From assembly GCA_946641515.1 (NCBI GenBank), contig CAMPBT010000003.1, positions 56,079 to 120,078 of the forward strand: a stretch of DNA of 64,000 bases, given 5' to 3'. The notes beneath the pieces are model-generated. The model did no database searches. It saw only the letters and a list, made by a program, of their open reading frames with translations, and was not told where the DNA came from. The stretch's first letter is position 1. Each line of letters opens with the position of its first letter. Below, piece by piece: positions 38,153-59,630 of this stretch. The stretch comes from an uncultured Bacillales bacterium. GTDB lineage: Bacteria; Bacillota_I; Bacilli_A; RFN20; CAG-449. The translations under genes were made by a program, and so were the position numbers.

Positions 38153-38270
38153 TTTTTGGATACTTATGTAACGCCTCTACTTTTATATCCTTTTATTAAG
38201 TATGATAATCGAGGCTTTTGAAAAAAGGCACGCGAATAAAATCATTAGTATAAATAAAGGAGAAAGAAAT

Positions 38271-38765: not shown

Positions 38766-38865
38766 TATATTTAATTAACTTACATATATAATAAATCGGC
38801 CGTAGTTCAGAAATGCACTTCGGCCATTATCATAAATAATGGTTCAAAGAAAGGAGGTACCAGTT

Positions 38866-39801
38866 ATGAAAAAAATCAAAATGATCTTAACAGCATTAAT
38901 TGGTGCTCTATTTCTTGGAACAGCCGCTGCTACAGTAGCTACAACAGGATTTGCAGCATGGACATTCTCTTCAAATTCTTACAACACTCAATCAATCAGA
39001 GGTGCAATAAACGAATGGGAATTTGCTTCTTATGAAAGCATCTTTGAATTTGATGAAGAAACAGGAACTATCTTATACATCAAACAAATCATTGATGAAA
39101 ATGGAACAGTCACTGTACCAAATGAAATTAACGGTGTCCCAGTTACACATATTGACAAGTATGCATTTAGCAATCAGCCTAGTTTAACATCAATTGTTAT
39201 CGAAGCAGAAAACTTAACAATTGAAAGCTATGCTTTCTATGGTGACTACAACTTAAAAGAAATCACTTTACCTTCTTCAACAAAATTACTCAAATATTCA
39301 TTTGCTAATTCAGGATCATATAACTCAGATACAAAGACATATTCAATTGACAGCGTTACATTCACAGGAAGCGCTACTGAATTAACAGGTAACCAAGTAT
39401 TCAAAGGATTAGAAATTAACACAATTACAATCCCTGCAATCGTTACTAACGTTGAAAAATCATTCTTCGATGGTGTTGAAGATTACGAAATGATCAATTA
39501 CGGTGGATCTGTTGAAGACTTCGTTGGTACAGATCATAACAACGATACATATTCAATCTTTGAAGGTTTAGTTTATAACTTACGTAATAGAAATGCTGGT
39601 ACATATGCTTACCAAGCTCCAACAGCATTAACAATCTCTGGCAGAGTATTCTACTTAAATCAAAGCAACTTTACACAGAACTTATTACATTACTACGCAG
39701 AAGATGGTTCATATATTGTATATAACTTTAACAATCGTGTTAAGGTTAGCGGCAGCACATACGATAACTCAAATTGCTACTATTATTACATTGCAGAATA
39801 A
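38866..39801 (+). CDS. exported BspA-type leucine-rich-repeat (LRR_5-like) protein with SipW-cognate-type signal peptide (paralog B1)
   Basis: ORF 38839..39801. Start preferred at ATG 38866, with AAAGGAGG RBS. N-terminus MKKIKMILTALIGALFLGTAAATVATTGFAAWTFSS. LRR_5-like repeats (VTVPNEINGVPVTHIDKYAFSNQPSLTSIVI...). Terminator at 39802-39840. Confidence 0.65.
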   Translation: MKKIKMILTALIGALFLGTAAATVATTGFAAWTFSSNSYNTQSIRGAINEWEFASYESIFEFDEETGTILYIKQIIDENGTVTVPNEINGVPVTHIDKYAFSNQPSLTSIVIEAENLTIESYAFYGDYNLKEITLPSSTKLLKYSFANSGSYNSDTKTYSIDSVTFTGSATELTGNQVFKGLEINTITIPAIVTNVEKSFFDGVEDYEMINYGGSVEDFVGTDHNNDTYSIFEGLVYNLRNRNAGTYAYQAPTALTISGRVFYLNQSNFTQNLLHYYAEDGSYIVYNFNNRVKVSGSTYDNSNCYYYYIAE

Positions 39802-40019: not shown

Positions 40020-40560
40020 CCTCTCACACCACGTAACGTGCCGTTCGGCATTACGCGGTTCAACTTACTTTTAAAGTATGCCTTGACATACTTTCCGCTT
40101 CTTCTCCTTTCCGCTTCTAAGATTTATTTCCTACGTATTGGATATTCTTTGAGATACGCTCATACCTTTTCCTGTCGGATATACCTTAGAAACATACATT
40201 TGTTAAAGCGATGTAAATTGTTTGGTCCTTCCTCTACTGAGTACTATGACCTCTGCTGACTTCCTATAGTTCGCTTTTCTAGGATTTCTCCTCTATAGGA
40301 CCTCACGGGATAAGTTATATATCTTTCCTCGTTTACCTACCTAATTTACGGATTAAGATTACGTTTGCCTTTTGGACTTTATTGCTTTTGGTCAACTTGT
40401 CCACTTAATTCGCCTTGATATTAGGTTTCTATTCGTTAGGCCACGATTTCGCTATCCCTTCTTTTCATGCGTAGTTACCTAGAGGCACTTTGGGAGTCGC
40501 TATCGGGTTGGTCGGCAAATACCTCTCTTCGGACTTTCATCGTAGATATATGACATGCCC
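40020..40560 (-). ncRNA. ORF-free, strand-asymmetric (purine-rich on minus strand) structured region; candidate large ncRNA of unassigned class
   Basis: About 540 nt with no credible ORF; the 73-aa frame at 40038..40259 is low-complexity. Multiple local hairpins, e.g. CGTAATGCCGAACGGCACGTTACG and GAAAGTATGTCAAGGCATACTTT. Bounded by the LRR-gene terminator at 39802-39840 and the rpsR terminator at 40566-40600. Strand assignment is tentative. Confidence 0.3.
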
Positions 40561-40620: not shown

Positions 40621-40848
40621 TTAGTCTTCTACGTAAGGAAGAAGTGCAACGAATCTTGCGTTTTTGATTGCTTGTTCGACTGCTCTCTGGTGCTTTGCAC
40701 AAGTACCAGTGACTCTTCTTGGAGAAATCTTTCCGTTTGGAGAGATGAATTTCTTTAATAATTCAACATCCTTATAGTCGATTTCCTGGTTTTTATTCTT
40801 ACAGAAGATACAAACCTTTTTTCTAGGTCTCATTTTCTTAAAAGCCAT
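40621..40848 (-). CDS. rpsR: 30S ribosomal protein S18
   Basis: ORF 40621..40872. Start probably at [13 protein letters not shown].... Conserved CxFC and RRVTG...KHQR motifs. Confidence 0.9.
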
Positions 40849-40901
40849 GCTATATCCTACCTTTCTTCTCACATTTGTGAGAGCATCAACATTTACCGTT
40901 A

Positions 40902-41860: not shown

Positions 41861-43111
41861 TTATAACTTTTCTTTTCCTACTGCAATCATAAGTTTAATT
41901 CTATTTTCTTGATTGACTTTAGTTTGAGAAGGATCGTAATCAATTGCAACAATATTTGCTAAAGGATATTTATCCTTTAATTCTTTCATAACGCCTTTAC
42001 CACAAATATGGTTAGGTAAGCAACCGAATGGTTGAGCGCAGACAATGTTTTCATATCCAGTTTGAATTAATTCAACCATTTCTGCAGTTAATAAGAAACC
42101 TTCTCCCATCTTAACCGCGTGAGACAAAATTCCATTAGATAAATTGACTGTATGTTTAAAAGGCATCATCGGTGTAAAACTTGTATACTTTTCAATGGCT
42201 TTTATCATCAATTTTTCACGTTTTTCTAGGTATTTTATAAGTCCTTTGTAAATTAAATTTTTGATGGTAGAACCACCATAAATTTCTTTATCATACTGAG
42301 GAACATATAACGAATAATAAACAAAACCTAGAAGTCCTGGAACATTAACTTCGCATCCTTGTTCTACTAAAAATGTCTCTAAATTATTATTAGCAAGAGA
42401 AGCATATTTAACATAGATTTCTCCGACCACACCAACTTTAACTTTCTTTTCATTTGTAATTGGTAATTTATTAAATTCTTCACAAATATATCTATAATTT
42501 TTAGACATTTCACGTGCACCAATACCAGAACCATTTTTAAGTTTTTCTGCAAGAACTTTAGTTATTTTATTAACTAACTCTTCTGCAGAACCTTTTGTAA
42601 TTTCATAGCTTCTAGTCTTGTTGTAAAGATACATAATTAAGTCGCCATAAAAAACCGCTACACCTAATTTTGTTGCCATTTTTAAGTCAAGTTTAAAACC
42701 AGAATGTTCAAGTCCTTGCATAGAAACTGAAATAACAGGAACATGGCCAAATCCCGCTTTTTTTAACGCTTTTCTAAGTAAATAGATATAGTTAGATGCT
42801 CTACATCCTCCACCAGTTTGAGTAAGAATCAAAGCAACTTTTGAAGTATCTTCCATATGCTCTAAAGCATCAATAAATTGACCAATAACTAAAGTAGCAG
42901 GATAACAAGTATCATTATGAACATACTTAAGACCTACTTGAGCAACACCTTCAAAATTATCACAAACTTTGCATTTATATCCTGCTTGAACAAGGACTTC
43001 CTTCATAAGTTTCATATGAACATCAAGCATAGAAGGAATTAAGATTGTATAGTCTTTAACCATCTCTTTAGTAAAGACAGGATAATCAATTACTTTATTA
43101 TTTCTTTTCAT
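41861..43111 (-). CDS. 2-hydroxyacyl-CoA dehydratase family protein (HgdB/D-component-like)
   Basis: 416 aa. Overall resemblance to dehydratase beta/D-component proteins (Cys residues C...C...GGGC, conserved GxxG pockets). Overlaps the upstream fusion gene by 14 nt, as expected for an operon partner. Confidence 0.5.
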   Translation of the reverse strand: MKRNNKVIDYPVFTKEMVKDYTILIPSMLDVHMKLMKEVLVQAGYKCKVCDNFEGVAQVGLKYVHNDTCYPATLVIGQFIDALEHMEDTSKVALILTQTGGGCRASNYIYLLRKALKKAGFGHVPVISVSMQGLEHSGFKLDLKMATKLGVAVFYGDLIMYLYNKTRSYEITKGSAEELVNKITKVLAEKLKNGSGIGAREMSKNYRYICEEFNKLPITNEKKVKVGVVGEIYVKYASLANNNLETFLVEQGCEVNVPGLLGFVYYSLYVPQYDKEIYGGSTIKNLIYKGLIKYLEKREKLMIKAIEKYTSFTPMMPFKHTVNLSNGILSHAVKMGEGFLLTAEMVELIQTGYENIVCAQPFGCLPNHICGKGVMKELKDKYPLANIVAIDYDPSQTKVNQENRIKLMIAVGKEKL

Positions 43112-46013
43112 TTTTATCCTCCTTTTCTAAAGCAGCGAATAAAGATCTTAATCTAATCTTAACTGCACCTAAGTTAGTAATTTCATCAATCTTGATTTGA
43201 GTATAAATCTTGTTTTTAGCTTCTAAGATTTCTTTAACTTCATCAGTAGTAATAGCGTCAAGTCCACATCCGAAAGAAACAAGTTGAACAAGTTCCATAT
43301 TCTTTTTAGTACTTACATAGTTTGCAGCATTATATAGTCTTGCGTGATATGTCCACTGATTAAGAACATGACGAGGAAGCTTTTCAACTCTATTTGATAA
43401 AGAAGATTCAGTAATAACTGCTTTATCAAATCCTGCGATCAATTTATCAATACCATGATTAATTAATGGATCAACGTGATAAGGTCTACCACATAAAACA
43501 ACAATACGTTTTCCGCTTTTTTCCGCTTCTTCAATAATCTCTTCACCTTTACGACGAATATCGCTTAAATATGAAGAATATTCTGCGTAAGCTTTATCAA
43601 CTGCATTAAGAATATCTTTTTTCTTTAACGTACTATCAAACTTACGAAGAATAGGGACTATTCTCTTCTTAAAATATGGTTCATTATGTATACCAACATA
43701 ATCAAAGACATAATTAACATCTTGAAGTCTCATCACATTGTTATGCAATTGTTCTGGATAATACGCAACAACTGGACAGTTATAATGATTATCAGAAATC
43801 TTTTCATCAATATTATATGACATACCAGGATAGAAAATATTTGTATAACCTTCATTTAACAATTTTTCAATGTGACCATGAGCAAGTTTTGCGGGGAAAC
43901 ATTCAGTATCTGAAGGAATTGTATGTTGACCTGATGAATATAATTTTTCATTAGAAAAACCAGAATTATGAACTTCAAAACCAAGTTCAGTAAGTAATGT
44001 AAACCAGAAAGGATATAACTCATACATATTTAAACAAAGAGGAATACCAATCTTTGCTCTTTTGCCGTGTACTGGTTCATAAGAAGCAATTTTTTGTCTT
44101 ATATATTCATATAAGTTTAATGAATTATCTTGAGCTTTCTTAGTAAGAGGTCTTTCACATCTATTACCTGAAATATATCTATTTTTGTTATTAAAGACAT
44201 TAATAGATAAATCGCAGTGGTTATTGCATAATCCACATTTAGTATTAATAATCTTATGCTCAAAATTTTTAATTTCTTCTGCACTTAAAATATTAGATTT
44301 TTCTAATTCTAAATCTTTAGCATATAATGCAGCACCATACGCTCCCATTAAGCCAGCAATATTTGGTCTAATTACTTCTTTACCAAGCATCTGTTCAAAA
44401 GATCTTAAAACCGCTTCGTTATAGAAAGTACCGCCTTGAACAACGATATGATCACCTAACTTAGCAGTAGAAGTAACTCTAATAACTTTGTATAAAGCAT
44501 TTTTAACAACAGACATTGCTAAACCTGCAGAAATATTATCAATAGTCGCGCCATCTTTTTGAGCCTGTTTAACAGAGGAATTCATAAAAACGGTACATCT
44601 AGAGCCTAAATCTACCGGTTTTTTAGCAAGTAATCCAATACGAGCAAATTCACTGACATCATAACCAAGTGCATTTGCAAATGTCTGTAAGAAAGAACCG
44701 CATCCAGACGAGCATGCTTCATTTAAGAAGATGTTAGTAGTAATTCCGTGTTCAACTTTAAAACACTTAATATCTTGTCCACCGATATCAATAATAAAAT
44801 CTACATCTTTTTGGAAATGTTTCGCAGCTTCTAAATGTGCCATAGTTTCAACTAGCCCACCATCAAGTTGGAAAGCATTTTTAATTAAATCTTCACCATA
44901 TCCTGTTGAAGCGGCACCTTTAATTAATAAATCAGGTTTTAAATCATACATCTCAGTTAAGATGTCTTTTAACATCACAACTGGATTACCTTTATTAGGT
45001 AAATATTTAGTAAAACGAATATTTAAATCTTCATCAATTAAGCAAACTTTAATAGTAGTAGAGCCAGAATCAATACCTAAATAGAATGGTCCGTTATAAG
45101 AATCATCTAAAGGTAAAGTATTTACATACGCTTTAGCGTGTCTTTCTCTAAATTCTTTTAATTCTTCTTCATTATTAAATAATGGAGATAATGATTTGTA
45201 ATGACCTTTAGATTCATGATGTTCAATCTTATAAATTAAATCATCAATAGTCATCTCGCCATTTGCACTTAATGCTGCACCCATTGCAACATAATAAAGT
45301 GAATTAGGAGGACAAATACCTTTACATTTTAAAGTTTCATCAAAGCTCTTTTGAAGTTCACTCATAAATGTTAAAGGTCCACCTAAATAAACAATCTTAC
45401 CTTGAATATCTCTTCCTTGAGCAAGTCCACCAATAGTTTGATTAACTACAGCTTTAAAAATAGATGCTGCAATATCTTTTTTATCTGCACCTTGGTTAAG
45501 TAAAGGTTGAATATCAGTTTTAGCAAAAACACCACATCTAGAAGCAATGTTATAGATTTTGCCGTGTTCTTTAGCAATGTCATTTAAATCTTCAATTGAA
45601 ATATTAAGTAAGGTAGACATTTGGTCAATAAAAGCACCAGTACCACCTGCACAAGATCCATTCATTCTAACTTCAAGTCCATTAGATAAGAATAAAATTT
45701 TCGCGTCTTCCCCGCCAAGTTCAATGACACAGTCTGTACCTGGAATAAACTTATTCACTGCAACTCTAGTTGCATATACTTCTTGAACAAAATCAATGCC
45801 TAAATCTTCACAAAGTCCCATACCTGCAGAGCCAGAAATAGCAACATGTAATTCTGAATCACCTAACTTATTTTTAATATCTTTTAATATCTCTAAAAGA
45901 TTCTCTTTGATATGAGAATAATGTCTTTTATAAATATCATATTTAATATTCGTATTATCATCAAAAACAATTGCTTTAATTGTAGTTGAACCAATATCAA
46001 GTCCTAGTCTCAT
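43098..46013 (-). CDS. acyl-CoA dehydratase activase-related fusion protein: two BadF/BadG/BcrA/BcrD (HgdC-like) ATPase domains plus a C-terminal dehydratase-component-like domain
   Basis: ORF 43098..46031. Start preferred at MRLGLDIGSTTIKA (46013). A second actin-fold start motif YLGIDSGSTTIKVCL lies about 320 aa later. Cys cluster KCGLCNNHCDLS...GNRCERP. C-terminal half HgdB-like. Confidence 0.6.
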   Translation of the reverse strand: MRLGLDIGSTTIKAIVFDDNTNIKYDIYKRHYSHIKENLLEILKDIKNKLGDSELHVAISGSAGMGLCEDLGIDFVQEVYATRVAVNKFIPGTDCVIELGGEDAKILFLSNGLEVRMNGSCAGGTGAFIDQMSTLLNISIEDLNDIAKEHGKIYNIASRCGVFAKTDIQPLLNQGADKKDIAASIFKAVVNQTIGGLAQGRDIQGKIVYLGGPLTFMSELQKSFDETLKCKGICPPNSLYYVAMGAALSANGEMTIDDLIYKIEHHESKGHYKSLSPLFNNEEELKEFRERHAKAYVNTLPLDDSYNGPFYLGIDSGSTTIKVCLIDEDLNIRFTKYLPNKGNPVVMLKDILTEMYDLKPDLLIKGAASTGYGEDLIKNAFQLDGGLVETMAHLEAAKHFQKDVDFIIDIGGQDIKCFKVEHGITTNIFLNEACSSGCGSFLQTFANALGYDVSEFARIGLLAKKPVDLGSRCTVFMNSSVKQAQKDGATIDNISAGLAMSVVKNALYKVIRVTSTAKLGDHIVVQGGTFYNEAVLRSFEQMLGKEVIRPNIAGLMGAYGAALYAKDLELEKSNILSAEEIKNFEHKIINTKCGLCNNHCDLSINVFNNKNRYISGNRCERPLTKKAQDNSLNLYEYIRQKIASYEPVHGKRAKIGIPLCLNMYELYPFWFTLLTELGFEVHNSGFSNEKLYSSGQHTIPSDTECFPAKLAHGHIEKLLNEGYTNIFYPGMSYNIDEKISDNHYNCPVVAYYPEQLHNNVMRLQDVNYVFDYVGIHNEPYFKKRIVPILRKFDSTLKKKDILNAVDKAYAEYSSYLSDIRRKGEEIIEEAEKSGKRIVVLCGRPYHVDPLINHGIDKLIAGFDKAVITESSLSNRVEKLPRHVLNQWTYHARLYNAANYVSTKKNMELVQLVSFGCGLDAITTDEVKEILEAKNKIYTQIKIDEITNLGAVKIRLRSLFAALEKEDKNEKK

Positions 46014-46230
46014 TATAATACCCCGCTTCATTAAAAATTATAGGAGGGTATTTATTAAAAATAAATAAAATCCAAAATTTAAAAATTTTTTGTTATTATT
46101 TTCAAGTTGTTAATAGGCACTTTTAGAAAAAGTGTCTATTTACTTTGTTATATAAATAGATTAAAACTACTATTTACAAAAATTATTAAAATTTTAAATT
46201 GGTTTCATTATAATAAAGGCAGGTTAACAT

Positions 46231-47016
46231 ATGAGAAAACAAAAAACTGTTTATTACAAAGATGAAATTAATGATGATTTTGCAGGCACAAATATCATCA
46301 CTCAACCTCTACGAGAAGATTATCATTATGTCCATAAAGGTTTTGTATGGAACTTTTTTGCATTTATCTTCTATTGGATAATTGCTTTCCCATTAGTATT
46401 CCTAATCCAAAAGCTTTGGACACATCAAAAAATTGTTAATAAAAAAGTTTTAAAAGAAGCAAGAAAGAAAAAGACGGGATATTTTATTTATTGTAACCAT
46501 ACTCAGTTATTCTCAGATGCAGTTACTCCTGCTTTAATTGCTGCTCCTCATAAAGCATATGTCACTGCTCATCCAGACTGTGTCTCCATTCCACTAGTAA
46601 AAGTACTCGTAGAATGGGCAGGAGGGCTTCCATTAAGTTCTACATTCAAAGGAATGAAAAATATGTATCGAGCGATGGATTACCGCCTAAAACATAAAAA
46701 CGTTATTACTATTTTTCCAGAAGCTCATATCTGGCCTTATTATAATAAAATTAGACCATTTATCGATTCTTCATTTGCCTACCCTGTCAAATTCAACGTA
46801 CCAGTATACGCAGTAACTACTACTTATTACAAAAAGAAATATTTTATTAAGCCAAGAATTAAAACATTCGTAGACGGACCTTTCTATCCAGACCCTTCTT
46901 TATCTCCAGTAGAAGCTAGAGAAAAGTTAAGAGATCAAGTATATAACGTTATGTGTGAACGTGCGGAAAAATATTCCACATATGAATATGTTAAATACGT
47001 AAAAAAAGAAGATTAG
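46231..47016 (+). CDS. lysophospholipid acyltransferase-like (PlsC-family) protein
   Basis: 261 aa. N-terminal TM. NHTQLFSD (HX4-5D-like) and FPEAHIW (FPEGTR-like) motifs. Confidence 0.45.
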   Translation: MRKQKTVYYKDEINDDFAGTNIITQPLREDYHYVHKGFVWNFFAFIFYWIIAFPLVFLIQKLWTHQKIVNKKVLKEARKKKTGYFIYCNHTQLFSDAVTPALIAAPHKAYVTAHPDCVSIPLVKVLVEWAGGLPLSSTFKGMKNMYRAMDYRLKHKNVITIFPEAHIWPYYNKIRPFIDSSFAYPVKFNVPVYAVTTTYYKKKYFIKPRIKTFVDGPFYPDPSLSPVEAREKLRDQVYNVMCERAEKYSTYEYVKYVKKED

Positions 47017-47044
47017 AAAATCACTAATCTTCTTATTTTTTTGC

Positions 47045-48208
47045 CTATTTTTGATATAAATCAATAGCCTTTTTTAGTCTAGATAAAGCATCAATAACAT
47101 TACTTCTTTGAGTAGCAAGATTCATTCTCAAGAAAGATAATCCACCTTCTCCATATTCTTCTCCATCAGATAAATATAAACCTGTAGTATCTAAAATATA
47201 ATCTCTTAATTTAGTACCATTTGGTTCAACATTAGAAACATCTATCCAAAGTAAATACAAAGCATCTGATTCAATAACTTTTAAAGAAGGAATTTCTTTG
47301 TTAATGTAATCTCTAACATAATCTTTATTTGCAAAGACATATTCTCTTAATTCATCAATCCATTCTTCACCTTTATAGAACGCTAGTTGAGGAGCTATTG
47401 TTGCAAGAGTATTAGCTTCTGCACATTCATCAGTATTTAATCCTCTTTCAAATTTATGTTTTAAATATGGATTTGGAATAACCGCCATAGAGGTTTGAAT
47501 TCCCGCGATATTAAAGCATTTTGTAGGTGCAATTAATGTTAATGAATTATTTAAATTAGTTTCAGAAACTGATGCAAAAGGAATATAAGATTTTCCAGGT
47601 CTAGTTAAATCACCATGAACTTCATCAGAAATAACTACAACATTATATTTTTTACATAATTCACCAATTCTAATTAATTCTTCTTTAGTCCAAATCTTAC
47701 CAATTGGATTATGAGGATTACAGAAAATTAAAGCAGAAGTTTCTTCTAACGCTAATTTATTTTCTAAATCGGCCCAATCAACTTCATAAATTCCATCTTT
47801 ATATAAAAGTTTATTTTGTAATGGTTTTCTTCCATTATTAACAATTGAATTAAAGAATATATTATAGACCGGAGTCATAACCACAACATTATTTGCCACT
47901 TCAGTCAATCTTCTAACAGCAGAAGAAATAGAAGGAATAACACCTGTAGAAAAAACCATCCATTCTTTTTTTATTTCAAAATGATAACGTTTATTCCACC
48001 AATAGATATAAGATTCAAACATTGAAGGAGGAAGAATATTATATCCGTAAATACCTTGATTAATTCTTTCTTTAAATCCTTCAATAATTTCAGGAGCAGT
48101 CTCAAAATCCATATCTGCAATCCACATAGGAAGGACATTGTCCTTAACATCCCATTTAACCGAGTATGTATTACGTCTATTAGTAGGTTTATCAAAGTTA
48201 TATTTCAT
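47045..48208 (-). CDS. PLP-dependent C-S lyase (MalY/PatB-family cystathionine beta-lyase-like aminotransferase)
   Basis: 387 aa. Aminotransferase class I/II fold with the PatB/MalY N-terminus (KYNFDKPTNRRNTYSVKWD). Confidence 0.75.
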   Translation of the reverse strand: MKYNFDKPTNRRNTYSVKWDVKDNVLPMWIADMDFETAPEIIEGFKERINQGIYGYNILPPSMFESYIYWWNKRYHFEIKKEWMVFSTGVIPSISSAVRRLTEVANNVVVMTPVYNIFFNSIVNNGRKPLQNKLLYKDGIYEVDWADLENKLALEETSALIFCNPHNPIGKIWTKEELIRIGELCKKYNVVVISDEVHGDLTRPGKSYIPFASVSETNLNNSLTLIAPTKCFNIAGIQTSMAVIPNPYLKHKFERGLNTDECAEANTLATIAPQLAFYKGEEWIDELREYVFANKDYVRDYINKEIPSLKVIESDALYLLWIDVSNVEPNGTKLRDYILDTTGLYLSDGEEYGEGGLSFLRMNLATQRSNVIDALSRLKKAIDLYQK

Positions 48209-48213
48209 ATTAT

Positions 48214-49053
48214 TTACCCCTTAATAATAATTTCAGTTTTAGATGGATCAATTTCATTCTTATCCATAATTAATTCATCAATACCTTCACATACTAGTCT
48301 ACCAGAAATAATGTTCTTAACAGAATCAATACGAGAATTAATTTCACAATTAATTGTAGAATATTCAAATGCCAAGTTTGTATTTTCTAATTTACAATTC
48401 TCCATAACTAAGTTTTCCATATAACAGAAACCTTGTTCACTTTCGATTGTACAGTTAACTAATTTAACATTTTTAGAGTTCCAACCAAAATATTCACCTC
48501 TAATAACAGAATCGTAAACTTCAACATTTTCACAATTCCAAAATGAATCTTTTGAATTTAAGATAGAGTTTTTAACAACAATGTTCTTACCTCCATCAAG
48601 AATATAATTGCCATCTAAAATTAAGTTTTCAATTACTACGTCAGAAGAATCTTTTAATAAGTAATCCCCTTTAGCTTTAACATTCTTCATATTAATATGA
48701 TCACATGACCATAAAGTTTCTTTAGCATCCAAGAATTCAGTATCTTCAATAGTTATAAATGATGCTCTTCTAAATTCTTTAGGAGCTTCTACTAAGCAAT
48801 TCTTTAATTTAATGTTCTTTGTATACCAAATACCAGATCTAGACATAACTTTAAAAGTAGAATTATTAACTTCAAAGTTTTCTCCATACCATAAAGGATA
48901 TTTCCATTCAAACGATGAATTGTTTATAACAACATTCTTACTTTCTTTTAATGGAGATTCTCCATCTTTGAAAGTAGAATTATTAATAACTAAATCACGA
49001 GATTTAAAAAGTGCTCTTTCACCTGTAAAAGTACCATTTTCTAAAATTTTCAT
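48214..49053 (-). CDS. right-handed parallel beta-helix repeat protein (DUF3737-like)
   Basis: 279 aa of repeated about 22-aa units (VxNNSTF / NxxLxN...). 5 nt separate it from the patB-like gene, so likely co-transcribed. Confidence 0.5.
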   Translation of the reverse strand: MKILENGTFTGERALFKSRDLVINNSTFKDGESPLKESKNVVINNSSFEWKYPLWYGENFEVNNSTFKVMSRSGIWYTKNIKLKNCLVEAPKEFRRASFITIEDTEFLDAKETLWSCDHINMKNVKAKGDYLLKDSSDVVIENLILDGNYILDGGKNIVVKNSILNSKDSFWNCENVEVYDSVIRGEYFGWNSKNVKLVNCTIESEQGFCYMENLVMENCKLENTNLAFEYSTINCEINSRIDSVKNIISGRLVCEGIDELIMDKNEIDPSKTEIIIKG

Positions 49054-49190: not shown

Positions 49191-49464
49191 TTTGATAATA
49201 TTTCACATTTATAATCAATAGTTTTGCTATTTTTATTGCAGACAAAAGTATTTTTCGGCTATTTACATTAATTTTATCGGTATTTATTATTGTTTTAATA
49301 TATTGTATCTATATTATATCATTTATATATATACGTACGCGCACGCGCATTGATAGATGTTATCTCAAAAAAAGTGCTTTTGTGTATCAAATCGTGCAAT
49401 TTGTGCCACAATGTTTAAAATTATATAATATTAATGTAAAAATATAGATGTAAGGAGGGATATT

Positions 49465-50499
49465 ATGACCACTTTTGCAACAGTAATTGTATTAATTATA
49501 TTGTCATTAATTATTTTCGCCTTTATTGGCGTTGCGTTATATTCTATTTTTAAATCAGAAAAAATTATTGTAAGTAGAAAAGAACGTGACCAGTTGATAA
49601 TTAAAGAACAGCAAAAAGAAAAGAAACCATCTAAAGCATCTAAAACTACTTCAATAGTATTTACAATCATTGGATATGTCATTGTATTTGGAATCTTAAT
49701 CTTTGAAGGATTTGCAGTTATTACTAATTCATCAAATAACTTATTGTTCATCGGAAACAATGCAAATTTAGTAGTAGCATCAGATTCTATGTCTACTATT
49801 GATAGTTCCGCTCAATTAGAAGCAAATGGTGGTTATTTGACAGACGATATGTTAAATGACCAATTCCAGATTGGAGATATTCTCTCTTTCTCAAAATTAC
49901 CATCTACAGAAAAAGAATTATTATCTTATACAGAAACCGGAGAACTAGAATATGTTGATGAATTAAATAAAAAAGTCAATTCTCCATATTTATATAAAGT
50001 ATTCGCATTCAAATACACTTTACCTGAAAAAGGTGAATCAATCGTATTACATAGACTTGTAGAAATTAGAGAAGTCTCTACTGCAAGTGGATCAACATAT
50101 CAATATGTTTTCATAGGAGATAAATATCCAAAATCAAGCCAAGTAGTAACTTATAAGAGTTTACTAGGTATTTATACTAGAGGAAGAATATCAGGGCTCG
50201 GATATCCAATTTTATTCTTAGGATCTGCTTATGGAGCCTACTCAGTTCTTGGAGCGTTATTCATTATTATCGCGACATCATACTTTACTAAAAAATTATC
50301 TAAGCTCTATTCAGATAGATATGACCAAATCAAAAAAGAAAAATTCGATACAGAATTCTCTTCAGACACATTTAAGAATCGTAGGCATGAAGTAGAAGAA
50401 AAAGTAATCGAAGCTGAAGAAGTTAAAGTCATCCCAAAAGATCATCAATCTCAAGAAGATGATAATTCAGATATTGGAAGTCTAAAGAAGAGAGATTAA
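49465..50499 (+). CDS. candidate ER/archaeal-type (SipW-like, Ser/His) signal peptidase I with extended architecture
   Basis: 344 aa. N-terminal TM (FATVIVLIILSLIIFAFIGVALY). Box-B-like VVASDSMSTI (Ser). Box-D-like IVLHRLVEI (His, not Lys). GDK segment. C-terminal TM (ILFLGSAYGAYSVLGALFIIIATSYF), as in SipW. Sits between cassettes of SipW-cognate-signal proteins. RBS AAGGAGGG. Confidence 0.5.
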   Translation: MTTFATVIVLIILSLIIFAFIGVALYSIFKSEKIIVSRKERDQLIIKEQQKEKKPSKASKTTSIVFTIIGYVIVFGILIFEGFAVITNSSNNLLFIGNNANLVVASDSMSTIDSSAQLEANGGYLTDDMLNDQFQIGDILSFSKLPSTEKELLSYTETGELEYVDELNKKVNSPYLYKVFAFKYTLPEKGESIVLHRLVEIREVSTASGSTYQYVFIGDKYPKSSQVVTYKSLLGIYTRGRISGLGYPILFLGSAYGAYSVLGALFIIIATSYFTKKLSKLYSDRYDQIKKEKFDTEFSSDTFKNRRHEVEEKVIEAEEVKVIPKDHQSQEDDNSDIGSLKKRD

Positions 50500-50762
50500 G
50501 ACTCACTACCGTTCAAAATGGACGGTAGTTTTTTTATTATAAAATCACTTTGCAAATTACTTATAATCTGTAAAGTTACAAACGTTTATCCCAAAAAATG
50601 TTAAACTTTTAACCCTACATTTGTAACATTTTTGGTATAAAACTGAAAGTGTATCTCTCAATGGAGCATCAAGAAAAGAACATTTGTTCCTTTCTTTGAT
50701 TTTCGAGTCAAATTTTTACTATTTTAAAAAGGAACATTTTAACATATTTCGTTTAAAATCTT

Positions 50763-50972: not shown

Positions 50973-51503
50973 ATGAAATTATTAAATAGAGTCACATTAG
51001 TATCAGTCTTAGGCGTAGCAGCTGTCATCGGTACAGGTTACGCTGCATGGACATTCTCAGCAGACACAACTGCAAACGCTAACGCAAATGTATTAATCAC
51101 ATCAGCATCAGAACAGGCAGGTACAATCACATTTGATAAAACTGTTAAATTAGTACTTGATCAAGGTTGGATTGGTTGGATTGATGCAGGAGTAGCTCCA
51201 AAAGATGCATACACTAACGAAGATGCACTTGCTTCAATCGTACCAACATTAACTCCATATGCAGGTTCTGAAACATTAGTAAGCGAATACGCATTAACTT
51301 GTTCAGTTAATTACGGCAATTTTACAAATTACTTAAACTTCGGTGCTTTCGCAACAACATGGGAATCAGGTTCAGCAGTTGCTTTACCAACAGTTTCTTG
51401 GAAAGATGGAATGAAGCCAACAACATTAACTGAATACAATACAATGAAAACTGCACTTCAAAATTTACAAATTGTCTTTACATTTAATGCAGACGTTGCT
51501 TAA
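50973..51503 (+). CDS. small exported TasA/camelysin-like protein with SipW-cognate-type signal peptide (paralog A2)
   Basis: 176 aa. MKLLNRVTLVSVLGVAAVIGTGYAAWTFSAD. C-terminus ...QIVFTFNADVA. The first about 100 nt are roughly 85% identical to 38271... at the DNA level. Confidence 0.7.
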   Translation: MKLLNRVTLVSVLGVAAVIGTGYAAWTFSADTTANANANVLITSASEQAGTITFDKTVKLVLDQGWIGWIDAGVAPKDAYTNEDALASIVPTLTPYAGSETLVSEYALTCSVNYGNFTNYLNFGAFATTWESGSAVALPTVSWKDGMKPTTLTEYNTMKTALQNLQIVFTFNADVA

Positions 51504-51640: not shown

Positions 51641-52489
51641 ATGAGAAAGCATAAATTTTTAACTTTCCTATTAGCGTACAGTATCCTTTTTAGTGGTGTA
51701 ATGCTTAGTAGTTACGCTACTAAAGGCTATGCAGCCTTTACTTTCAGCGCTGAATCAACTAGTATAAATCCTGTTCCAACAGTAGTAACAAATTGGACAT
51801 TCAACAATCAAGAGCCAGGAACAACTATTGTAATCGATGGAAATGGTAATGCTACAATTTCTGGTGGAGAGCATGATGGTGAATCAGTAGAAATTACATA
51901 CGTTACTGATGATGAAGGAAATAGTTTAATCAATAATGGTTCTGTAACAACACAAATTGAAATTAATGAAGACGGAACAGTTTCAATCACTCAATTTGAT
52001 GTCACACCTGGATCAGGTTCAATTGGAGACATCAATTATATCTTCTATGGTGAAACTTTATATTTACCAAGCCAATACGTTATTGATGGGCAAGTATATC
52101 CTGTTTCTTCATTAGATCAACCGCTTAAAGTTGAAAAAGCTAAACTTTTAATTGGCATTGCAGCAGTTAACAATGTAATTGTACCTGAAGGATATGTATC
52201 CTTATGTGCTGAAGCATTCTACGGTAACAATTGTTCTTTCAAAACTCCAGTAGCCTTTAATTTACCTTCAACATTAACAAGTATTGGATATCACGCAATT
52301 GATTTAGCAGATAGCCCTAAAATTAATTACGCAGGTACAAAAGCTCAATTTAGAGCATTATCAAATAACTCCGGTAACTGGGTAGGAAGATCAAGCGGAT
52401 CTAACAATACTATTACAGTAACTTGTTCAGACGGAAATTTAACTGTAAGATACAATAATAATAATAATGGTACAATAACTATTTCTTAA
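51641..52489 (+). CDS. exported BspA-type LRR (LRR_5-like) protein with SipW-cognate-type signal peptide (paralog B2)
   Basis: 282 aa. MRKHKFLTFLLAYSILFSGVMLSSYATKGYAAFTFSAE. LRR_5-like segment IVPEGYVSLCAEAFYGNNCSFKTPVAFNLPSTLTSIGYHAI. C-terminal INYAGT motif shared with B1 (INYGGS). Confidence 0.65.
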   Translation: MRKHKFLTFLLAYSILFSGVMLSSYATKGYAAFTFSAESTSINPVPTVVTNWTFNNQEPGTTIVIDGNGNATISGGEHDGESVEITYVTDDEGNSLINNGSVTTQIEINEDGTVSITQFDVTPGSGSIGDINYIFYGETLYLPSQYVIDGQVYPVSSLDQPLKVEKAKLLIGIAAVNNVIVPEGYVSLCAEAFYGNNCSFKTPVAFNLPSTLTSIGYHAIDLADSPKINYAGTKAQFRALSNNSGNWVGRSSGSNNTITVTCSDGNLTVRYNNNNNGTITIS

Positions 52490-58391: not shown

Positions 58392-58864
58392 TTTTCTTTT
58401 TTATCTTTTAAAACAAAGTAATTTGCACATGAGGCAACAAGTAAGAATAACGCAATTATTCCAATAAATAAATATGAAGAATAATCTACAAAAACAAATT
58501 CTTTTCCTTTTGCCATAGCTTTAAATAAAGCTTTAAAGAAAACACCTAATGTATAAAAACTACATAATGAAGTAGATGTAATACTTGCAAGAACTGAAGC
58601 ATATCTATATGCTTCTTTTTTAGTTAATAAGATGTAAAGCTCATAGCCAAAATATGAAACAACAATTAATCCCACTAATAACATAATTAAGTAATTGTTA
58701 TCTGCAACGAACTCTTTTCCGTCCGCACCATAATCTTCAACTGATGCACTTTTAATATACTTAACTAAGCCAAGGACAAAGACAAATATTCCTGATGCTA
58801 AGAATGATAAGTTTTTAATAAGTTTACTTAATTTCACTGACAGCTTCCCCCTCTCTATATTCAT
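58388..58864 (-). CDS. hypothetical small membrane protein
   Basis: ORF 58388..58879. Four hydrophobic helices. Overlaps the thiT 3' end, so the call and start are uncertain. Confidence 0.35.
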   Translation of the reverse strand: MNIERGKLSVKLSKLIKNLSFLASGIFVFVLGLVKYIKSASVEDYGADGKEFVADNNYLIMLLVGLIVVSYFGYELYILLTKKEAYRYASVLASITSTSLCSFYTLGVFFKALFKAMAKGKEFVFVDYSSYLFIGIIALFLLVASCANYFVLKDKKEN

Positions 58865-59474
58865 AGTCTTCTTCAACAATAAAGAATTGTGGATACTTAA
58901 TTACAACAGGAATCATAACAATTAAGCATAAGACAATAGATGGACCAGTATAAGAAATGTTATAGACAAATGAATATAAGTATTTGCCTCCAACAAAGCC
59001 TTCAGGGCAAGATGAACCCCAGAAGATAACACCTGCTAAATAGTGGCAGACAAACTTGAGTAATCCACCAAGTACTGTACCAATACTTACCCAAGCAATC
59101 TTTTCTTTATCAGTTTTTGCGTTCTTAAATGGCTTAAAGAATAAACCTGCAGCAGCAACAACTGGATAAGCTAAAATATAATCTAATAAAATTTGGAACA
59201 TGACTTTATACCATGTGTCAGCAATGGCATAAACTCCTCCAAGCATTTGTAAGAAACTGAGAATAAATCCAGATATAAAACCCGCTACAAAGCCCCTTCT
59301 ATAACATAGAATTAAGATTGGTAGCATAGCAAGTCCGATAGATCCTCCGTTTAAAAATACCCCTCTCCATAGACCACCTTGTAAGAAGTCTAAAGCAAAG
59401 GCAATCGCGGTAAAGATAGCAATTTCAACAATACCTTTAACGCTTAAAACATTGTTTTTTCTTTTCTCTCCCAT
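58824..59474 (-). CDS. thiT: ECF-transporter thiamine-specific S component ThiT
   Basis: 216 aa. Similar to L. lactis ThiT (VEIAIFTAIAFALD..., ILCYRRGFVAGFISG, HYLAGVIFWGS). Preceded by a TPP riboswitch. Confidence 0.75.
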   Translation of the reverse strand: MGEKRKNNVLSVKGIVEIAIFTAIAFALDFLQGGLWRGVFLNGGSIGLAMLPILILCYRRGFVAGFISGFILSFLQMLGGVYAIADTWYKVMFQILLDYILAYPVVAAAGLFFKPFKNAKTDKEKIAWVSIGTVLGGLLKFVCHYLAGVIFWGSSCPEGFVGGKYLYSFVYNISYTGPSIVLCLIVMIPVVIKYPQFFIVEEDYEYREGEAVSEIK

Positions 59475-59482
59475 AAAAAAAT

Positions 59483-59630
59483 CCTTTCAGACCTAGTACG
59501 CCCAAAAGGATAGAATAAAATACATTGTGTTAGAATCCTTCCGCTAGCATTACCTAGATCAAGTTATTGGTCCCATAAGTCACACTTATGATCTCAGCCT
59601 AGTTTACTAAGCACCCATACTAAATTGTTT
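59483..59630 (-). promoter_or_regulatory. TPP (THI-box) riboswitch with SD-sequestering terminator hairpin
   Basis: Minus-strand RNA: UGGGUGCUUAG...GGCUGAGAUCAUAAGUGUGACUUAUGGGACCAAUAACUUGAUCUAGGUAAUGCUAGCGGAAGGA matches the THI element consensus (CUGAGA, ACCUGAUCUGGAUAAUGCCAGCG-AGGGA). Expression platform CCUUUUGGGCGUACUAGGUCUGAAAGG plus U7 lies immediately before the ATG at 59474; its 3' arm holds AAAGGA (SD). Confidence 0.85.

Follow-up and report, generated by a model that had tools for sequence, protein, structure and literature searches.

We analyzed a 64,000-nt stretch of DNA from an uncultured Bacillales bacterium (contig CAMPBT010000003.1; hereafter the window, to whose full length all counts in it refer) and focused on an open reading frame (ORF) of 344 amino acids (aa) at 49465-50499 on the forward strand. 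Its product is probably a type I signal peptidase embedded in the membrane, of the endoplasmic reticulum (ER)/archaeal type (S26B, SipW/Sec11-like) and dedicated to secreted proteins encoded at the same locus. It is a member of a large and divergent subfamily in uncultured Bacillota that has hardly been annotated. The evidence consists of homology, fold, the alignment of the Ser, the His and the first Asp of the active site, and a conserved co-occurrence with motif-bearing proteins. An original prediction, made from the DNA letters alone, had placed a SipW-like Ser/His signal peptidase candidate in this ORF. Both the ORF and the assignment were borne out, the latter by a profile alignment with human SEC11A and by a LexA/signal-peptidase fold.

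A large family related to SipW and Sec11

Searched on its own against Pfam and NCBIfam, the protein matched no peptidase model even at E ≤ 10 and returned only noise driven by its transmembrane (TM) segments; phmmer against PDB sequences returned nothing relevant. A profile of six sequences likewise gave no Pfam or NCBIfam peptidase match and nothing relevant in PDB (hmmsearch). A word-indexed search found only five homologues. One of them, P0005, which lacks the long insertion described below, matched the SipW model NF046067 (2.1e-10) and TIGR02228, the model for archaeal-type signal peptidase I (2.7e-9), without reaching the curated cut-off of either. An exhaustive profile search, with clusters defined at 50% identity, detected 1,229 cluster representatives at E ≤ 1e-3, of which 542 passed E ≤ 1e-10 and 188 passed E ≤ 1e-30. 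Rather than the lone new architectural variant first suspected, the protein is a divergent member of a large family that is essentially unannotated.

Comparison with Pfam and other profile models, proposed as a check on the original prediction, came out empty for the query alone and informative through its relatives: 97 of 108 sampled members matched both the SipW model (best 7e-18) and TIGR02228 (best 1.7e-16), and none of the 108 matched a Pfam peptidase family. Ten relatives scored individually reached 23-64 bits against NF046067 (cut-off 190) and 19-41 bits against TIGR02228 (cut-off 51.85). Homology to S26B is thus significant through relatives and profiles, and neither the query nor these ten relatives pass a curated threshold. 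Such scores are consistent with the public record names of the family, which read 'hypothetical' and, in one case, 'S24/S26 family peptidase'. Similarity to the S26B models was graded, from 1e-9 to 1e-17 in the main family through 4e-6 to 6e-5 in insertion-bearing members that keep the second active-site Asp to no match in the query's own clade. The metagenome-assembled genomes (MAGs) contributing members were labeled Clostridia, Clostridiales, Erysipelotrichaceae, Christensenellaceae and Bacillales.

AlphaFold, run on the 108-sequence alignment, modeled a LexA/signal-peptidase fold with a mostly-beta catalytic core, as expected of clan SF (S24, S26); a run on the 6-sequence alignment (predicted local distance difference test 47) was not used. 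Box D of the protein carries His196 and not the Lys of P-type S26A enzymes such as LepB and SipS, and both a P-type signal peptidase and an S24 LexA-like autoprotease were rejected on this ground. The S26A model TIGR02227 matched 20 of the 108 relatives, weakly (best 2.7e-5) and always below the S26B models.

Predicted catalytic residues and the missing triad aspartate

Conservation was calculated over 153 family sequences, made up of the top 150 representatives and of P0002, P0003 and P0005 from the initial search; they share about 100 residues before box B, a C-terminal TM helix and then a tail. Box B (VVASDSMSTI, residues 103-112) holds Ser108, whose SDSMS context aligns with SGSME of SEC11A. 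Conservation reached 99% for Ser108 and His196 and 100% for Met109, Arg197 and Gly218-Asp219, a level that argues against chance motifs, and the family consensus reads VxSxSMS ... HRIVxI ... LQGDAxxxxDxxPV. With hhalign, the family profile aligned to human SEC11A at 96% probability (E 3.5e-9) and paired Ser108 with Ser56, His196 with His96, Arg197 with Arg97, Asp219 with Asp116 and Ser225 with Asp122. The same His and box E register was obtained with a profile of the insertion subclade only (83%, E 9e-6). Residues 59-125 of the SEC11A sequence used for hhalign agree with our PDB alignment, and its Ser56/His96/Asp122 numbering agrees with the structure paper on the signal peptidase complex. In the PDB search, the family profile matched human SEC11A and SEC11C at about 2e-6, pairing HR with HR (SEC11A IVHRV motif) and GD..D with GDNNAVDD. 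According to the structure paper, Ser56-His96-Asp122 is the SEC11A triad, mutation of Asp122 abolishes activity and Asp116 forms a salt bridge with Arg97.

These alignments place the Ser and the His at S26B catalytic positions, as originally predicted for the box B Ser and for a His about 90 residues on (88 by our count) where P-type enzymes have Lys. The anticipated Asp is the part that did not hold: Ser225 stands at the position of SEC11A Asp122, so that box E departs from the pattern G-D-x(5)-D, which is a caveat on the assignment. Across the family, the second Asp, six residues past Asp219, is kept in 93% of sequences. Its loss is a clade property: nine cluster representatives (query, P0002, P0003, P0006, P0007, P0008, P0011, P0013 and P0015) cluster together and carry GD[KLA]Y[PA]xx[STNY]Q. 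This Asp-less clade has changed at positions that are nearly invariant elsewhere, with Y182F, D178K and Y177N lost and the clade-specific Tyr221, Pro222 and Gln226 gained in box E, and no new clade-invariant acidic residue has arisen. Ser108, His196, Arg197 and Asp219 are invariant inside the clade and the synteny with the candidate substrates is kept; for these reasons we regard the peptidase as probably active.

Insertions and membrane architecture

The distance from Ser to His is 40 residues in SEC11A, 54 in the main family and 77-110 in the query's subclade. What had been described as one long insertion is indeed extra length between the boxes, made up of two separate insertions of different evolutionary depth: a family-wide one of about 15 aa accounts for 54 against 40, and a further one of about 35 aa, restricted to the subclade, for 77-110. 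The latter is modeled with high confidence as short beta-hairpins.

Hydropathy indicated three hydrophobic helices (about residues 1-31, 59-90 and 249-270), and the structure model places helices at 3-37, 57-89 and 255-299. The earlier description of two terminal TM helices was therefore right about both ends and one helix short. Three helices and a basic loop with 11 Lys/Arg, which fits the positive-inside rule, point to a topology with the N-terminus outside, TM helix 1, a basic cytoplasmic loop, TM helix 2, an extracytoplasmic catalytic beta-domain, TM helix 3 and a charged cytoplasmic tail. In this predicted topology, TM helix 2 precedes the catalytic domain as an S26B anchor would, and a SipW-type C-terminal helix follows it. 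When relatives are aligned to the NCBIfam models for SipW and TIGR02228, the match begins at TM helix 2, and with the SipW model it reaches into the C-terminal helix (P0186 residues 126-265 correspond to model positions 49-183 of 189).

The charged, acidic C-terminal tail of the original prediction (SQEDDNSDIGSLKKRD) is present, and Pfam and NCBIfam recognized no domain in it. Tail length varies from 0 to more than 750 aa across the family. Several cytoplasmic positions are conserved family-wide, namely position 39 (Gly in 95%, Lys in the query), Asp42 (97%), Ile45 (83%), Glu48 (80%) and Arg285 (100%). They sit across the membrane from the active site and have no equivalent in SipW or Sec11.

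The tails of some relatives contain a segment resembling ribosomal protein L15/L27A (TIGR01071 at 2.3e-8 in P0019, residues 297-375), and Pfam Ribosomal_L27A matched at 8.6e-17, in 2 of the 108 members and not in the window protein. A ribosomal-protein-like domain fused to a signal peptidase is a puzzling combination. In the subclade, several long Pro/Glu/Lys-rich cytoplasmic tails (P0004, P0010, P0012, P0014, P0018 and the 441-aa protein of locus L006) end in a conserved motif, G-[VL]-[FYV]-V-x-I-[VMA]-K-S-[DG]-[DG]-[DG]. The query's tail ends in no more than a short charged stretch.

Neighboring secreted proteins share a predicted cleavage motif

Five ORFs in the window begin with a Sec-type signal peptide ending in G[YF]A↓A[WF]TF (the arrow marks the predicted cleavage site). 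Three lie just downstream of the peptidase gene (50973, 51641 and 53022) and two about 11 kb upstream (38271 and 38839). When the entire window was translated in six frames, the motif turned up in just one other place, a spurious 17-aa ORF. Motif-bearing neighbors were present in all 11 of the distinct loci compared, whose GC contents range from 28% to 53%. Together these loci supplied 27 candidate substrates with the consensus G-x-[GV]-[YF]-A↓[AT]-W-T-[FY], in which P1 is Ala in 26, P2 Tyr or Phe in 24, P3 Gly or Val in 26, P2' Trp or Phe in 27 and P4' Phe or Tyr in 27. Judging from the motif, cleavage would fall between the Ala and the following Ala or Thr. The clustering of a peptidase gene with proteins that share an aromatic-flanked cleavage region resembles the SipW cassette, and the 27 flanking proteins in 11 loci, with their conserved TasA-like motif, lend support to the proposed dedication to neighboring proteins. 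A prepilin-type (class III) signal was rejected, since the hydrophobic segment precedes the motif instead of following it.

The small candidate substrates form one family across loci. This family had no match in Pfam, NCBIfam or PDB sequences and only 12 homologues, all unnamed or 'hypothetical'. In an hhalign comparison with TasA only the signal peptide aligned (11% probability), and we therefore claim no TasA homology for the mature domains. A literature search with the motif strings gave nothing relevant. In locus L001, the syntenic counterpart of the second candidate substrate (51641-52489) has a weak LRR_5 match.

A further brief aromatic element recurs in the larger motif-bearing proteins some 20-25 residues past the predicted cleavage site (INEWEF, VTNWTF, VGTWTL, LSDFEW, MQDYVW and APFQW). 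Beyond it come otherwise variable domains, which suggests a common N-terminal module. Carriers are 38839-39801 and 51641-52489 in the window, L006 2580-7965, L008 7813-8433, L009 8211-8837 and L007 8774-9760.

Comparison with known systems

SipW of Bacillus subtilis, an S26B enzyme in MEROPS whose gene belongs to the tapA-sipW-tasA operon, has the same box B Ser, box D His-Arg and box E GD as the query, as well as an N-terminal anchor and a C-terminal TM helix. Its gene, too, adjoins a few dedicated secreted substrates (candidates in our case) with aromatic P2 and P2' residues (TasA GGTWA↓AF, GTGYA↓AWTF here). TasA is cleaved at GGGTWA↓AF by SipW as a dedicated ER-type peptidase, and its aromatic P2 and P2' hinder LepB (PMC10269814). 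In the TasA fiber, the donor strand is made of the residues that come right after the cleavage site, and TapA has these residues in common with TasA (PMC9674648). By analogy, the AWTF mature N-termini common to our small and larger proteins may be compared with that strand. In contrast to SipW, the query has an additional TM helix at the N-terminus and a conserved cytoplasmic loop, ends in a long charged tail and contains both insertions, the family's 15 aa past box B and the clade's 35 aa ahead of box D; Ser225 takes the place of the second Asp of box E. The query itself is not matched by NF046067, whereas its relatives are, and the mature parts of the candidate substrates have no detectable similarity to TasA.

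SEC11A and SEC11C (PDB 7p2p, 7p2q, 9rjb) act in the eukaryotic signal peptidase complex, a four-subunit assembly with a Ser56-His96-Asp122 triad. The query differs in having Ser225 at position 122, in contributing three TM helices itself and in carrying two insertions, and there is no sign of partner subunits. The archaeal type I signal peptidases (TIGR02228, sigpep_I_arch; for example those of Methanococcus voltae and Sec11b of Haloferax volcanii) are likewise of the Ser/His type and, unlike the query, have the second box E Asp. Bardy and colleagues reportedly found in 2005 that this Asp is essential in archaeal enzymes.

Proposed mechanism and alternatives

Most likely, the peptidase removes the signal peptides of its neighbors. 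Ser108 would attack the scissile bond with His196 as general base, and Asp219 would pair structurally with Arg197 in the manner of Asp116 and Arg97 in SEC11A. Its targets in the window would be the three paralogues of small size (about 160-176 aa) and the two larger proteins, one of them with the weakly LRR_5-like syntenic counterpart. Aromatic P2 and P2' residues are the traits by which TasA is handled poorly by housekeeping LepB-type enzymes and is cleaved by its dedicated SipW. The Asp-less clade possibly copes without the triad Asp by means of a Ser/His dyad assisted by Gln226 or Tyr221.

A wider scheme is conceivable, although we hold it only tentatively and find it doubtful as a whole. 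It would join an Asp-free ER-type peptidase, using either a Ser/His dyad or Gln226/Tyr221 to orient His196, with a 35-aa insertion that may serve as a cap reading the aromatic YA↓AW cleavage region. Peptidase and substrates would then constitute an undescribed surface fiber or adhesin system of uncultured gut Bacillota, with the mature AWTF... N-terminus of the small and larger proteins acting like the TasA/TapA donor strand. The conserved loop and the tail, L15-like in some members, might couple cleavage to translation or translocation.

The main rival to a dedicated signal peptidase is a non-catalytic homologue that works as a membrane chaperone or assembly factor, with the cleavage left to a housekeeping peptidase. 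A precedent exists in Streptococcus pyogenes, where pilus polymerization requires SipA/LepA (PDB 4n31, 4k8w), a homologue of signal peptidases that is not catalytic. The query differs from SipA in keeping Ser and His and in being related by sequence to S26B and not to S26A; SipA is said, in the 4n31 paper, to derive from P-type (Ser/Lys) enzymes and to be without catalytic residues. Ser108, His196, Arg197 and Asp219 would not be expected to stay invariant in the Asp-less clade after a loss of catalysis. The substrates carry aromatic P2 and P2' residues, the very features that hinder LepB-type cleavage of TasA, and the main family keeps the full Ser/His/Asp set in the same gene neighborhood. 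We consider such a non-catalytic role unlikely.

A bifunctional protein, in which a signal peptidase has a second, non-proteolytic role in its loop or tail (ribosome or translocon coupling, or regulation), extends the proposal of a dedicated peptidase and does not exclude it. Conservation of position 39, Asp42, Ile45, Glu48 and Arg285 far from the active site speaks for it, as do tails of 0 to more than 750 aa, some with an L15-like segment, and Terra and colleagues are said to have reported in 2012 that the C-terminal portion of SipW has another role, in the formation of surface biofilms. For the query such a role is hypothetical, its own tail lacks a recognizable domain, and we consider this reading improbable. 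Finally, the empty Pfam, NCBIfam and PDB peptidase searches with the query and the 6-sequence profile might suggest an unrelated membrane protein with SxSM and HR motifs by chance. Against this stand the transitive and profile homology to S26B, the clan SF fold, the invariance of the motifs and the conserved linkage to substrates, and the idea is effectively refuted, with a negligible chance of being right.

Bacterial ER/archaeal-type signal peptidases are known mainly from SipW and its substrates TasA, TapA and camelysin. Our results indicate a much larger sister family, comprising no fewer than 188 and as many as 1,229 clusters at 50% identity, which standard annotation calls 'hypothetical' and whose members each come with their own candidate substrates and a recognizable cleavage motif. 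The occurrence of G-x-[GV]-[YF]-A↓[AT]-W-T-[FY] at the N-terminus offers a simple rule to predict a dedicated secretome in largely uncultured organisms and a lead to new cell-surface structures. In addition, the Asp-less clade amounts to a natural test of whether ER-type signal peptidases can do without the third residue of their triad.

Gene organization and other features of the window

Features of the peptidase candidate, its putative substrates and the related loci (positions are those of the window)
Feature	Position	Strand	Basis or remark
Ribosome-binding site AAGGAGG	49452-49458	+	6 nt before ATG, read from sequence
SipW/Sec11-like (S26B-related) membrane signal peptidase candidate gene	49465-50499	+	ORF, family homology, fold
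TM helix 1	49471-49551	+	About residues 3-29; hydropathy and model; absent from SipW and Sec11
Basic cytoplasmic loop, residues 30-61	49552-49647	+	11 Lys/Arg against 5 Asp/Glu; family-conserved positions
Conserved cytoplasmic positions, residues 39-48	49579-49608	+	
TM helix 2	49648-49728	+	About residues 62-88; anchor before the catalytic domain, corresponding to the one anchor at the N-terminus of SipW/Sec11
Box B VVASDSMS, residues 103-110	49771-49794	+	Ser108, predicted nucleophile; 99% conserved, aligns with SEC11A Ser56
Family-wide insertion after box B, residues 111-133	49795-49863	+	About 15 aa longer than SEC11A; conserved Tyr124-Leu125
Subclade-only insertion, about 30-35 aa, residues ~147-176	49903-49992	+	Ser/Thr/Glu-rich; spacing, alignment, model
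Box D IVLHRLVEI, residues 193-201	50041-50067	+	His196, predicted general base; Arg197 corresponds to SEC11A Arg97
Box E GDKYPKSSQVV, residues 218-228	50116-50148	+	Asp219 corresponds to SEC11A Asp116; Ser225 in place of triad Asp122
C-terminal TM helix (TM helix 3)	50200-50289	+	About residues 246-275; hydropathy and model; as in SipW
Charged cytoplasmic tail, residues 276-344	50290-50496	+	Family-invariant Arg285
Arg285	50317-50319	+	
Intrinsic terminator	50505-50529	+	11-bp stem, 5 GC pairs, T-run; also delimited as 50505-50539; directly 3' of the stop codon
Candidate substrate 1, 176 aa, secreted	50973-51503	+	Predicted signal ...VIGTGYA↓AWTFSA
Candidate substrate 2, 282 aa, secreted	51641-52489	+	Predicted signal ...ATKGYA↓AFTFSA
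Candidate substrate 3, 161 aa	53022-53507	+	Paralogue of substrate 1; predicted signal ...IVGVGYA↓AFTFSD
Candidate substrate 4, 164 aa	38271-38765	+	From Met24 of the ORF starting at 38202; predicted signal ...LVGTGYA↓AWTFSA
Candidate substrate 5, 320 aa, secreted	38839-39801	+	Predicted signal ...ATTGFA↓AWTFSS
L001			Syntenic locus with motif-bearing proteins
L003			Carries P0004; motif-bearing proteins
L006			'Bacillales bacterium UBA4951' MAG; four motif-bearing proteins
L007			Christensenellaceae MAG; motif-bearing proteins
L008-L011			Four main-family loci; motif-bearing proteins
L012, L013			Two Asp-less-clade loci; motif-bearing proteins

The peptidase gene has a ribosome-binding site, a terminator and conserved homologues, and a chance ORF was rejected on these grounds; the antisense ORF at 49431-49760 that overlaps it is the spurious one. 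The terminator directly after the stop codon indicates an independent, monocistronic transcription unit. Upstream, the genes at 41861-49053 are syntenic with positions 1-7187 of L001, the locus of a 59%-identical homologue. Both stretches contain genes for a DUF3737 protein, an aminotransferase and a 261-aa ORF as well as BcrAD_BadFG/DUF2229 and HGD-D-type dehydratase-like genes. An additional CoA_binding_2 gene in L001 is absent from the window; its place would thus be the AT-rich gap of 411 bp that precedes the peptidase gene.

Elsewhere in the window, Rfam detected two group II intron domain fragments at 40225-40484 on the reverse strand (group-II-D1D4-3, 96.6 bits, and group-II-D1D4-1, 46.9 bits), which fall in the interval separating the gene at 38839-39801 from rpsR (40621-40872). 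With no reverse-transcriptase ORF near them, they look like an ORF-less or degraded group II intron. A thiamine pyrophosphate (TPP) riboswitch (59518-59628, reverse strand, 60.9 bits) lies directly upstream of a 216-aa ORF (58824-59474, reverse strand). L001 has a Thia_YuaJ-type (thiamine transporter) gene further downstream at a comparable position that may correspond to it. Finally, a transfer-messenger RNA (tmRNA) gene with the tag peptide GNRNQLSYAAC is located at 853-1226 on the reverse strand.
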